Assembly (NCBI GenBank): GCA_963809485.1
Contig: CAWEJX010000012.1
Span: 64,001-128,000 of the forward strand
Direction of reading: 5' to 3'
From: an uncultured Acidobacteriota bacterium
Lineage (GTDB): Bacteria > Acidobacteriota > UBA6911
DNA length: 64,000 bases
Positions 32,634 to 35,136 of the stretch are shown in pieces; position 1 is the stretch's first letter, and every line of letters begins with the position of its first letter. The notes beneath the pieces were generated by a model. The model ran no database searches. It was not told the origin of the DNA and was given only the letters and a program-made list of their open reading frames with translations. The translations under genes were made by a program, and so were the position numbers.

Positions 32634-35136
32634 ATGGCGATTGAGTCTGGCAGCAAGTATGCCGAAGAAGTTGGATCATGGCAGGAAATTCTTATACCTG
32701 TCCGTTCCGCGCGGGTTGAAAAGGCCAGGGAAAGAGTGCGCAAAGAAGCCGAAATCTGCCTGGAACGCATTCGAGCCGAACTCAAGGCCTATAACCAGTA
32801 TAAAGACCAGCCTTCCATCATTCAGCGAGCCCGCTTCCTTGAGACTTTCCTGAGGGAGAAAAGTGTGCTTATCCAGGAGGATGAACTCATTATAGGTACC
32901 GTGGGAAGTAAGCCTCGCTCCGCTTTTATAACAACGGCGAATATCGCCTCTATCGAAGAAGAGCTGGATGATCCGGTAAAGGACTTCTCAATACGGTCCT
33001 ATGACAGGATTTTAGTTCATCCTGAGGAGAGAAAAGAACTGAGAGAAGAGATTATTCCGGCCGTTAAAGGCAGTGCCATCTCTCTTTTCGAGTATAATTT
33101 TAAAAATGTCGACCGGGATATTCTCGAACATGCCGCTCCCGGAGTCTCATCCTGTCCGCATATACCTATTATCGGTGACGTATCGATGGCAAGAGAAGGC
33201 GGCCACATGTTCCTCAACTTTGAAAAGGCCCTTTGTAAAGGGCTTAGAGGAATCAAGGAAGAGGTCAGGGAGAAGTTGGCGGAACTTGACCAGCCATATC
33301 GCGGATTTGACCGAAAACAGAGACGAGAATTTTACGAATCCGTGCTCATCACCCTGAATGCCGCTACGGAATATTTCCAGAAATATGCCGGACGCGCGCG
33401 TGAGATGGCAGCAAAAGAAACAGATCCGAAACGAAGGACGGAACTGGAACATATTGCCGAGACATGCGACCGGGTGCCGGAAAATCCCGCGCGGGACTGG
33501 TGGGAAGCTCTACAGTCCATCTGGTTCCTGTTCACTCTGAGTTGGATGGAACACGCCACTTTTGCAGTACATTTTCTCGGCCGAATCGACCAGATTTTGT
33601 ATCCCTTCTACAAGAAAACCGTAGAAGATGAGAAGAAAATGACCCGGGAAGAAGCTCTGGAGCTTCTGGAATGCTTCCTGGTGAAATTCAACGAACCAGC
33701 CTGGGCACTCAACTACGAGTGGTCGCAATGGGCAACCGGCCAGGGACTTTCCCAGACAATGGTGATCGGCGGACAGACCAGAGAGGGCAAAGATGCCTGC
33801 AACGAGGTTACCATGCTTGTACTGGAAGCTATGGAACAATTGCGTCTGAATCAGCCGGAATTCGCCATGAGGATATGGGAAGGGACACCCGATAAATATC
33901 TTAAAAAGGCGACCGAGCTTATCCGCCTCGGGCTCGGCTATCCGAAATTCATCGGTGACCGGAAAGGAATTCAGATGGCAGCCAAGGCCTATCCGGACCT
34001 GACAATCGAAGACTGGCGCCAGTTCGCTGTTGCCGGATGTTCGGAGATAGGTCTGCCTTATATCACTATGGATAACGGTTATGAAGCAATCGCACTGGCC
34101 TCCAAGTGGATAGAGCTGGTCTTGAGTAACGGTAAATGCGCGGTATGCGGCAAGCAGATCGGACTGGAAACCGGCGATCCCAGGAAATTTGAATCTATGG
34201 AACAGGTGAAAGAGGCCTACCGCAAACAGGTATTCTACTGGGGCGAGTATATGGCAAAGGCCGAGAAGATTTTCAAGGAAAACCAGAGCGAATGGTATCC
34301 TGCTCCATTCTGCTCGGCCTTTACCGAAGGACCCCTTGACAGAGGGCGAGATATTACCAGGGGCGGCGCCTGGTACACCGTGTACGGTTTCCTGCTGGCC
34401 AGCATCGCCGACGCAGCGGATTCTCTGGGAGTAATAGACAAGCTTATCTACCGTGATAAAAAGGTTACCTGGGACCAGCTGATTGAAGCGGTGAATGCCA
34501 ACTGGGAAGGTTATGAAAACATAAGGCAGCTCTGCGTCAACGGTGTCCCAAAATACGGGAATGACGACGATTACGCCGACGGCTGGGCAATCTGGGTAGC
34601 CGATGTCTGGGCCGACCTTATAGACTGGCTCAATACCAGAAAAGACCTTATGCCGAGGTGGGGAGGCAGATATCTGGCAGGTGGCCTGGTGGCAATAGCC
34701 AGTACCCAGTTCGGAGAATCGATCGGCGCTACACCAAACGGGCGTAAACATCCCATGCCGGTGGCTGATACCTGCTCTCCTGTACAGGGTGTCGACCGGA
34801 ACGGTCCCAGCGCCGTGGTCAAGTCATTCAGTAAATTGCCTACTCACCGGTGGGCGCTCGGCGGTCTGATAAACATCCGGTTAAATCCGAATCTGTTTAC
34901 AACCGATGCTGACCTTGAGAGATTTGCGGCTTTTATTCAGAGCATGTGAAGAGTTAGGTCTGTACCATGTTCAGTTCAATATAATTTCTGCGGAACTGCT
35001 GCGTAATGCAATGAAAGAACCGGAAAAATACCGGGACCTGCTGGTCCGGGTAGCCAGCTATGTCGCCTACTTTGTTGAGTTGAGTCCGAACCAGCAGATG
35101 GACATCATCAACAGAACCGAGCAACAGAGCTGGTAA
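32634..35136 (+). CDS. Glycyl-radical-family enzyme with Ser in place of the radical Gly (RVASY); frameshift near 34932
   Basis: GRIDQ, VIGGQ, Cys loop AGCSE, PKYGNDDD, GATPNGR; C-terminus HVQFNII...[12 protein letters not shown] in ORF 34906..35136. Confidence 0.88.

Follow-up and report, generated by a model that had tools for sequence, protein, structure and literature searches.

The stretch of DNA analysed here, referred to as the window, comprises 64,000 nucleotides (nt) from an uncultured bacterium of the Acidobacteriota (assembly GCA_963809485.1, contig CAWEJX010000012.1, here C12, positions 64,001 to 128,000). At positions 32634-35136 it carries a gene of the GRE (glycyl radical enzyme) superfamily in which serine takes the place of the radical-site glycine, and which is followed by the gene of a radical SAM activating enzyme (activase). 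Comparison with homologs gives good support to the assignment of this gene to the serinyl radical enzymes (SREs), the Ser-type members of the superfamily. In the assembly, the gene is split over two reading frames, and we consider it fairly probable that it is the ortholog of a conserved SRE of 833 amino acids (aa) with its own activase and that the split is an assembly error.

Gene layout and radical site

The fingerprint of the radical site (Table 1) reads R-V-A-S-Y and is encoded by CGG GTA GCC AGC TAT, with the Ser codon AGC at 35056-35058. This agrees with the initial annotation, which had placed the motif within 35041-35073; by the numbering of the 833-aa homologs, the residue is Ser808. 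Apart from the Ser, the C-terminal translation around the motif is typical of a GRE. The other GRE of the window has the canonical RVAGY (motif at about position 1672; C12:65672), as had also been annotated.

The first frame of the gene ends in ...FAAFIQSM, followed by TGA at 34947-34949, and contains the PFL-like domain, the Cys loop and the front half of the radical domain. RVASY lies outside this main frame, in a second frame of 83 codons that is open from 34885 to 35136. The match to Pfam PF01228 (Gly_radical) is divided accordingly, with profile positions 2-62 in the first frame and 56-106 in the second, and no single frame of the assembly spans both the Cys loop and the radical site. An alignment with the ortholog in the genus-mate genome G001, whose protein is 93% identical, shows a surplus of exactly one base in the window (ATTC[A]GAGCA). 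Intact relatives are 833 aa long and read ...FAAFIRACEELGLYHVQFN... over the join; one of them, P0002, is 96% identical to the SRE product of the window.

The initial annotation had argued from an intact Cys loop and an intact activase that the enzyme has not decayed. Both of these are indeed intact (Cys loop AGCSE, with the Cys codon TGT at 34038-34040), but the enzyme gene is not, and the argument was wrong as stated: the 1-nt insertion at 34939 cuts the last 62-65 codons or so, including the Ser, off the gene. The change of frame had been overlooked because the motif was translated locally.

Homologs, phylogeny and predicted chemistry of the serine type

The initial annotation had proposed a search for homologs that share RVASY and had named close homologs that all carry Gly as the case against its reading. 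Two protein searches yielded 157 distinct relatives (the truncated product of the window itself and two translated fragments were left out), and in 156 of them, with identities that reach down to about 53%, the site is occupied by Ser; the one that departs from this is 791 aa long and ends in a different C-terminus. Species-representative genomes contained 47 loci at 51-93% identity, in 44 of which the C-terminus was readable. Ser is present in 43 of these (RVAS[YF] in 40, RVAST in two, RVGSF in one), and the remaining locus has Ala and adjoins a Ser-type gene. The next-best 32 loci, which are the nearest of the Gly type, are only 33-35% identical and have Gly throughout (32/32), which leaves a gap from 51% to 35% identity between the Ser-type and Gly-type enzymes of the genome loci. 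In a library clustered at 50% identity, Ser-type enzymes occur in two of the best 150 representatives, after which identity drops from 47% to 39%.

Across the clade, the Ser is encoded by AGC (29) or AGT (13) and never by TCN (0), and each of the codons used is one step from a Gly codon; the same pattern is given for SREs in the available text of Fu et al. (2024; PMC11528403). Since AGC is one step from GGC, the Ser codon could have been a wrongly called base, or a mutation private to this copy of an ordinary Gly enzyme. Against this stand the identical AGC of the G001 ortholog and the nearly uniform Ser of relatives far closer than any Gly-type locus, and the chance that this explanation is correct is negligible; a base-call error at the Ser is ruled out by the homologs. 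By these comparisons, the Ser is genuine and conserved, and the gene is neither miscalled at this codon nor a decayed GRE.

A tree was calculated from 56 sequences, namely 40 open reading frames (ORFs) of the Ser-clade type (760 aa or longer and readable at the site), 12 Gly-type loci picked by hand from the 32 for taxonomic spread, three Gly-type paralogs from the same genome as the window, and P0002; partial and broken genes were excluded. The sequences without Gly fall into a single clade, of 41 rows (Shimodaira-Hasegawa-like approximate likelihood ratio test, SH-aLRT, 100; stem 0.69), which includes members from Clostridia/Oscillospiraceae. The type found in the window is a subclade of 13 rows (SH-aLRT 100) and sister to the rest of the Ser clade; this subfamily branches deeply and shares about 55% identity with the branch of the Clostridia members. 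Because the Ser is kept across one well-supported clade apart from the Gly-type enzymes, the gene of the window is assigned to the SREs.

Three of the loci (L045, L046 and L047) have a Ser-type (RVASY) and an Ala-type (RVAAY) gene close together. The three Ala-type proteins nest within the Ser clade beside their own Ser partners (SH-aLRT 99-100), and Ala therefore arose there within the Ser clade. This paired arrangement is not described in the available text of Fu et al. (2024; PMC11528403).

Homologs of GREs in which the radical-site residue is Ala, Ser or Thr were described by Fu et al. (2024; PMC11528403), in line with the initial annotation, which had mentioned recent reports of non-glycyl aminoacyl radical enzymes. 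The available text lists 21 SREs from NCBI nr, states that SREs are monophyletic and reports that, once its partner had activated it, the SRE of Dethiosulfatibacter aminovorans (DaSRE) carried a C-alpha radical at Ser801, as detected by electron paramagnetic resonance (EPR). The SRE class was thus published in 2024, and the gene of the window adds a new member. It shares with DaSRE, as described there, the architecture of the GRE superfamily, a Ser for the Gly of the fingerprint (RVxG[FWY]) encoded by AGY, the catalytic Cys of the Cys loop, an adjacent activase, and GRE eliminases as the closest characterised relatives; length and site position also fit (Ser801 in DaSRE, Ser808 of 833 here). 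Unlike DaSRE, it is frame-broken.

In an alignment of 21 sequences of the family, G468, C469 and E471 are invariant, and C469 aligns with the Cys of CutC. The Cys loop is kept as GC(S/T)E across the Ser clade, and CSE, CTE, CVE or CIE was found in 146 of the 158 sequences scanned. A Glu two residues after the thiyl Cys (GCxE) is a mark of GRE 1,2-eliminases, the group that comprises CutC, HypD, the glycerol and propanediol dehydratases, isethionate sulfite-lyase and HpsG/HpfG. The window has GCSE at this position, and the closest solved relatives of P0002 in a PDB sequence search are likewise 1,2-eliminases: CutC (9f3w; E 5.3e-127), followed by matches that include isethionate sulfite-lyase, HypD and glycerol dehydratase (E 1e-105 to 1e-122). 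The activase has the motif CPLRCIWC (CX3CX2C; C37, C41 and C44, at 35278-35301) and, as in the eliminases, two additional ferredoxin-like Cys clusters. For the subfamily of the window (16 loci with at least 82% identity; all counts refer to loci with sufficient flanking sequence), an activase gene lies within two genes downstream of the SRE at 12 of 13 loci.

The differences from the eliminases are the Ser at the radical site, scores of P0002 far below the equivalog cut-offs (HpsG, 492 against 1000 bits; HypD, 476 against 1100; CutC, 469 against 1050), and a set of neighbours (CoA-transferases, a MaoC-like hydratase and a DUF6282 protein) that are partners of no known eliminase. P0002 stays below the cut-off of each of the twelve GRE-type models of NCBIfam that were listed; one of these is the PFL2-3 subfamily model (TIGR01774; 552.2 bits against 678.2).

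By analogy, the activase would use S-adenosylmethionine (SAM) and a [4Fe-4S] cluster to take the alpha-hydrogen from Ser808, so that a stable C-alpha radical is left. This radical would oxidise Cys469 to a thiyl radical, which in turn would abstract a hydrogen from the substrate, and Glu471 might provide the base for a 1,2-elimination like those of CutC and HypD.

Several points weigh against the assignment and this chemistry. The chemistry is predicted from a single tested SRE (DaSRE, as described in the available text of PMC11528403) and from that of GREs. An AlphaFold2 model of P0002, based on the 21-row alignment, has a mean predicted local distance difference test score (pLDDT) of 66, and the geometry between Ser and Cys is unreadable because pLDDT falls below 50 at the Cys loop (456-483) and the C-terminus (806-833). 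The link to DaSRE is indirect: we infer that it shares the Ser clade found here because SREs are stated to be monophyletic, because the clade contains Clostridia/Oscillospiraceae members, and because length and site match. A second protein search, with a Sporobacter-type SRE as query, named no Dethiosulfatibacter protein among its matches.

The Ser-clade proteins might also be catalytically silent relatives, pseudoenzymes or regulators that store no radical. This would accord with the scores of P0002 below the twelve GRE-type cut-offs and with a 2026 review, according to whose available text all aminoacyl radical enzymes still lack a known function (PMC13450708). It is at odds with the invariant Cys and Glu of the Cys loop, the activase kept adjacent in the subfamily, the strong conservation of the Ser itself, and the Ser radical of the one SRE studied by EPR, and we regard it as very unlikely. 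The proposal of the initial annotation that the gene encodes a serinyl radical enzyme is supported by homology, namely by the Ser across the clade, the invariant Cys and Glu, and the activase that follows.

The single-base insertion at position 34939

The contig was compared with the syntenic contig of G001 over 14 orthologous gene pairs. The comparison revealed six unpaired single-base indels in coding sequence, at window positions 1271, 14818, 15950, 34939, 40557 and 40653, all of which are +1 insertions in the window; there are no deletions. Five of the insertions change the frame of four of the 14 genes (the second GRE, a CoA-transferase, the SRE and, twice, an SMP-30-like gene), and in a fifth gene the alignment of the last 30 residues or so is lost after the sixth insertion. 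The frames of G001 are all open over the 14 pairs, and the G001 ortholog of the second GRE is intact with 824 aa. Past the break, the SRE of the window differs from P0002 in one of 65 residues. Contigs were compared from four of the 24 public sequencing runs listed; the site is covered in two of these, X1 and X2, by pieces from related populations with about 97-98% identity, and the extra base is absent from both. Elsewhere in the assembly, the third carB copy and the second uvrA copy are broken as well (Table 1); co-binned material (contamination estimate, 7.3%) or uneven contig quality may account for these fragments. The surplus of +1 insertions on one side only, accompanied by neither deletions nor nonsense codons nor drift, is more readily explained by consensus errors than by decay. 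From these comparisons, it seems reasonably likely that the extra A is a consensus error of the assembly, and since this is its most likely origin, the organism probably makes the full-length SRE.

Some observations run counter to an assembly error. In a search of public sequencing runs for the source reads, the best match contained only 0.33 of the words of the stretch, and the contigs that cover the site come from relatives and not from this strain. The same search listed no RNA run. The genes rpoB, rpoC, ileS, dnaE, secA and gyrA, two copies of carB and one copy of uvrA are each in one open frame, and C12 is not poorer in long ORFs than other contigs. Coverage by long ORFs per contig did not separate good from bad contigs. 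The extra A lies outside any homopolymer. In addition, four of the 47 other Ser-clade loci (L039, L049, L050 and L055) are broken in different ways, so that a real loss would not be without precedent.

If the frameshift were real, the 1-nt insertion would have inactivated the SRE in the course of a recent decay of an accessory catabolic island, and the cell would make at most a 771-aa protein that lacks the radical site. The break is present in the sequence, and the nine whole housekeeping genes indicate that errors are not everywhere; together with the position of the insertion outside a homopolymer, this speaks for real loss. So do the breaks in nearby accessory genes (the CoA-transferase, the SMP-30-like gene and the second GRE), the rearrangement of the region relative to G001 (a 9.8-kb insertion, and a spacer in place of a DHDPS-like gene), and the dispensability of the ortholog, which only two of 25 genomes of the genus carry. 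Decay would not be expected to produce +1 insertions exclusively, nor to leave 64 of 65 residues past the break identical to P0002 and the adjoining activase intact, and the extra base is missing from the related populations. We consider real inactivation possible but doubtful.

The split could also be functional, with a 771-aa core and a separate 76-aa Ser-radical domain, or with a +1 shift at ATG-TGA-A (34944-34950). The second frame has an ATG at 34906, its 76-aa product was recorded by gene callers (P0161), and a shift of +1 at the stop codon would bring the product back to the length of the homologs, with three residues changed. Such a stand-alone radical domain would resemble GrcA/YfiD, the spare part of PFL. 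The C-terminus of P0002 has weak matches to GrcA models (55.6 bits; cut-off, 145), and unlike GrcA, the relatives have the radical domain fused to the 833-aa enzyme with no sign of independent translation. A search for relatives of 41-133 aa gave 86 pieces, of which 35 have Thr, 32 Ser, 17 Gly and two Ala; most are on contigs shorter than 3 kb. Short C-terminal Ser pieces are present in the database (32/86), a few of them on long contigs, but they cannot be distinguished from fragments caused by contig ends or frameshifts. The close relatives are all single 833-aa proteins without the extra base, no Shine-Dalgarno-like sequence was seen before 34906, and the sequence at 34944-34950 is unlike known +1 shift sites. 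A functional split is highly improbable; programmed +1 frameshifting was rejected because it is conserved in no relative.

An assembly error thus remains the preferred explanation of the split. The case calls for caution, as a single base splits a gene that had been taken to be intact, and insertions of this kind occur in four further genes of the contig; claims about this strain need the reads.

Table 1. Positions of the SRE gene, its neighbours and the other genes discussed. Positions refer to the window unless a locus, genome or contig is named.
Feature	Position	Strand	Evidence or remarks
SRE gene, first frame (771 codons and TGA)	32634..34949	+	ORF list, translation; Pfam PF02901, E 1.9e-158
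SRE gene, second frame (last 65 codons and TAA)	34940..35136	+	translation; RACEELGLYHVQFN...RVASY...QQSW
Cys loop codons TGT TCG GAG (C469, S470, E471)	34038..34046	+	sequence
Extra A, +1 frame shift relative to orthologs	34939..34939	+	DNA alignment to G001 ortholog
Fingerprint R-V-A-S-Y	35047..35061	+	sequence, translation, homolog alignment
Radical SAM activating enzyme, 309 aa	35170..36099	+	TIGR02494, 328.6 bits (cut-off 174.35)
DHDPS-like (class I aldolase-like) protein, directly upstream of SRE	31012..32058	+	Pfam PF00701, E 9.4e-11; PDB DapA, E 1e-9
UGSC-family protein, 620 aa, downstream of activase	36356..38218	+	Pfam PF24696
DUF6282 protein	27885..28763	-	inside the 9.8-kb stretch without counterpart in G001
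Four family III CoA-transferase genes and one MaoC/FAS1-dehydratase-like gene (17101-18360)	14590..21169	-	
Family III CoA-transferase, split	14590-15829	-	one insertion at about 14818; intact in G001
Second GRE (RVAGY), broken at 1271	1-1720 (C12:63322-65720; starts before the window)		1-nt insertion relative to G001
SMP-30/gluconolactonase-like gene, three frames	40050-41179	+	two 1-nt insertions (40557, 40653); intact in G001
Third carB copy, four pieces	G000, C14:48376-51300		other copies whole
Second uvrA copy, two pieces	G000, C10:38384-41123		other copy whole
Broken Ser-clade genes	L039, L049, L050, L055		three with about 46-56 codons missing and a frame change; one with an insertion of about 105 nt and a short duplication
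Ser/Ala-type gene pair	L045, 1587-4082 and about 8053-10580		no activase detected
Ser/Ala-type gene pair, directly adjacent	L046, 932-3400 and 3634-6126		activase follows
Ser/Ala-type gene pair, directly adjacent	L047, 7755-10244 and 10330-12800		activase follows

Conserved neighbours and distribution

The initial annotation had expected the surrounding genes to provide context for the substrate. This does not hold for the window alone, where the gene order is rearranged relative to the operon of the subfamily; it does hold through the operon of the relatives, since the neighbourhood becomes informative only by comparison with them. At the subfamily loci, a MaoC/FAS1-dehydratase-like gene lies at most two genes upstream of the SRE (13/14), a DUF6282 gene at most three genes downstream and mostly right after the activase (12/13), family III coenzyme A (CoA)-transferase genes at most six genes upstream (9/14), a DHDPS-like gene directly upstream (7/14), and members of the UGSC family within six genes (7/11). 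At the other loci of the Ser clade these partners are much rarer, and an aldehyde:ferredoxin oxidoreductase is found instead at seven of 22. Because the partner genes differ, this suggests that the subfamilies of the Ser clade use different substrates.

The version of these conserved companions in the window is the block of a MaoC-like gene and four CoA-transferase genes at 14.6-21.2 kb on the minus strand, the first CoA-transferase of which is frame-broken. It is separated from the SRE by a 9.8-kb stretch (21106-30954) that is absent from the syntenic contig of G001 and carries UGSC-family genes, two DHDPS-like genes, the DUF6282 gene and a thioredoxin reductase gene. PDB sequence searches gave no match for the UGSC-family and MaoC-like neighbours, and only distant ones (DapA, NanA) for the DHDPS-like protein.

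The MaoC-like, paired family III CoA-transferase, DHDPS-like and DUF6282 partners suggest the conversion of a carboxylic acid and its subsequent handling as a CoA thioester. We tentatively propose that the MaoC-like protein, the DHDPS-like protein where present, the SRE and its activase, the DUF6282 protein, a 143-aa protein and the paired CoA-transferases constitute a previously unknown anaerobic route in wetland bacteria of the Dehalococcoidia and Acidobacteriota types, in which a substrate with a carboxyl group would be opened or dehydrated by a serinyl-radical eliminase and the product would then be processed as a CoA thioester. Aminoacyl radical enzymes were described only in 2024 (PMC11528403), and the available text of PMC13450708 assigns no reaction to them; if true, the proposed route would be the first workable handle on the function of any of them. 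In any case, the operon of the subfamily narrows the search for the substrate and names the proteins to be co-expressed.

An ortholog of the SRE is present in two of the 25 genomes of the genus that were searched (G000 and G001); the best matches in the others are at most 35% identical. Because G001 is labelled Acidobacteriota and the other carriers of the subfamily are labelled Dehalococcoidales or Dehalococcoidia, the distribution suggests that the SRE was horizontally transferred. The subfamily is found mainly in metagenome-assembled genomes (MAGs) that bear the label Dehalococcoidales and stem from samples of fens, peat and wetlands. The Ser clade as a whole comprises at least 156 clusters at 90% identity, as obtained in the two protein searches, and is found mostly in uncultured bacteria of fens, peat and wetland soils. 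The main text of PMC11528403 refers to gut MAGs and Eubacteriales, and Chloroflexi and Dehalococcoidia are absent from it, although its supplementary lists may hold such sequences. A literature search for Dehalococcoidia with a glycyl radical returned nothing relevant among the papers listed, as judged by titles and the beginnings of abstracts, and a search under the names serinyl or seryl radical enzyme returned no match. The Ser type is therefore no curiosity of the gut but forms a large clade of mostly wetland bacteria; what this analysis adds is the size and habitat of this clade, together with the conserved operon as a concrete lead to the reaction of SREs.

The spacer of 575 nt just upstream of the SRE, where G001 has a second DHDPS-like gene, contains two oppositely oriented matches to the Rfam family Acido-Lenti-1 (32248-32293, minus strand, 33.0 bits; 32385-32430, plus strand, 30.6 bits). 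Both are below the gathering score of 37, at which Rfam detected nothing in the window, and they are the only Rfam matches in the window up to an E-value of 0.01. The numbers of promoters and terminators predicted in the window were not above those of shuffled sequences.

A UGSC-family gene at about 21036-22560 on the minus strand has an in-frame TGA in the motif GVGG*GSC, and its product is therefore likely to be a selenoprotein. Three further UGSC paralogs of about 600 aa (22852-24594, minus strand; 36356-38218 and 41794-43617, plus strand) have neither Cys nor selenocysteine at this position. DHDPS-like genes and the thioredoxin reductase gene (29354-30274, minus strand) lie beside the UGSC genes, and this set may represent an uncharacterised thioredoxin-linked reductase module.

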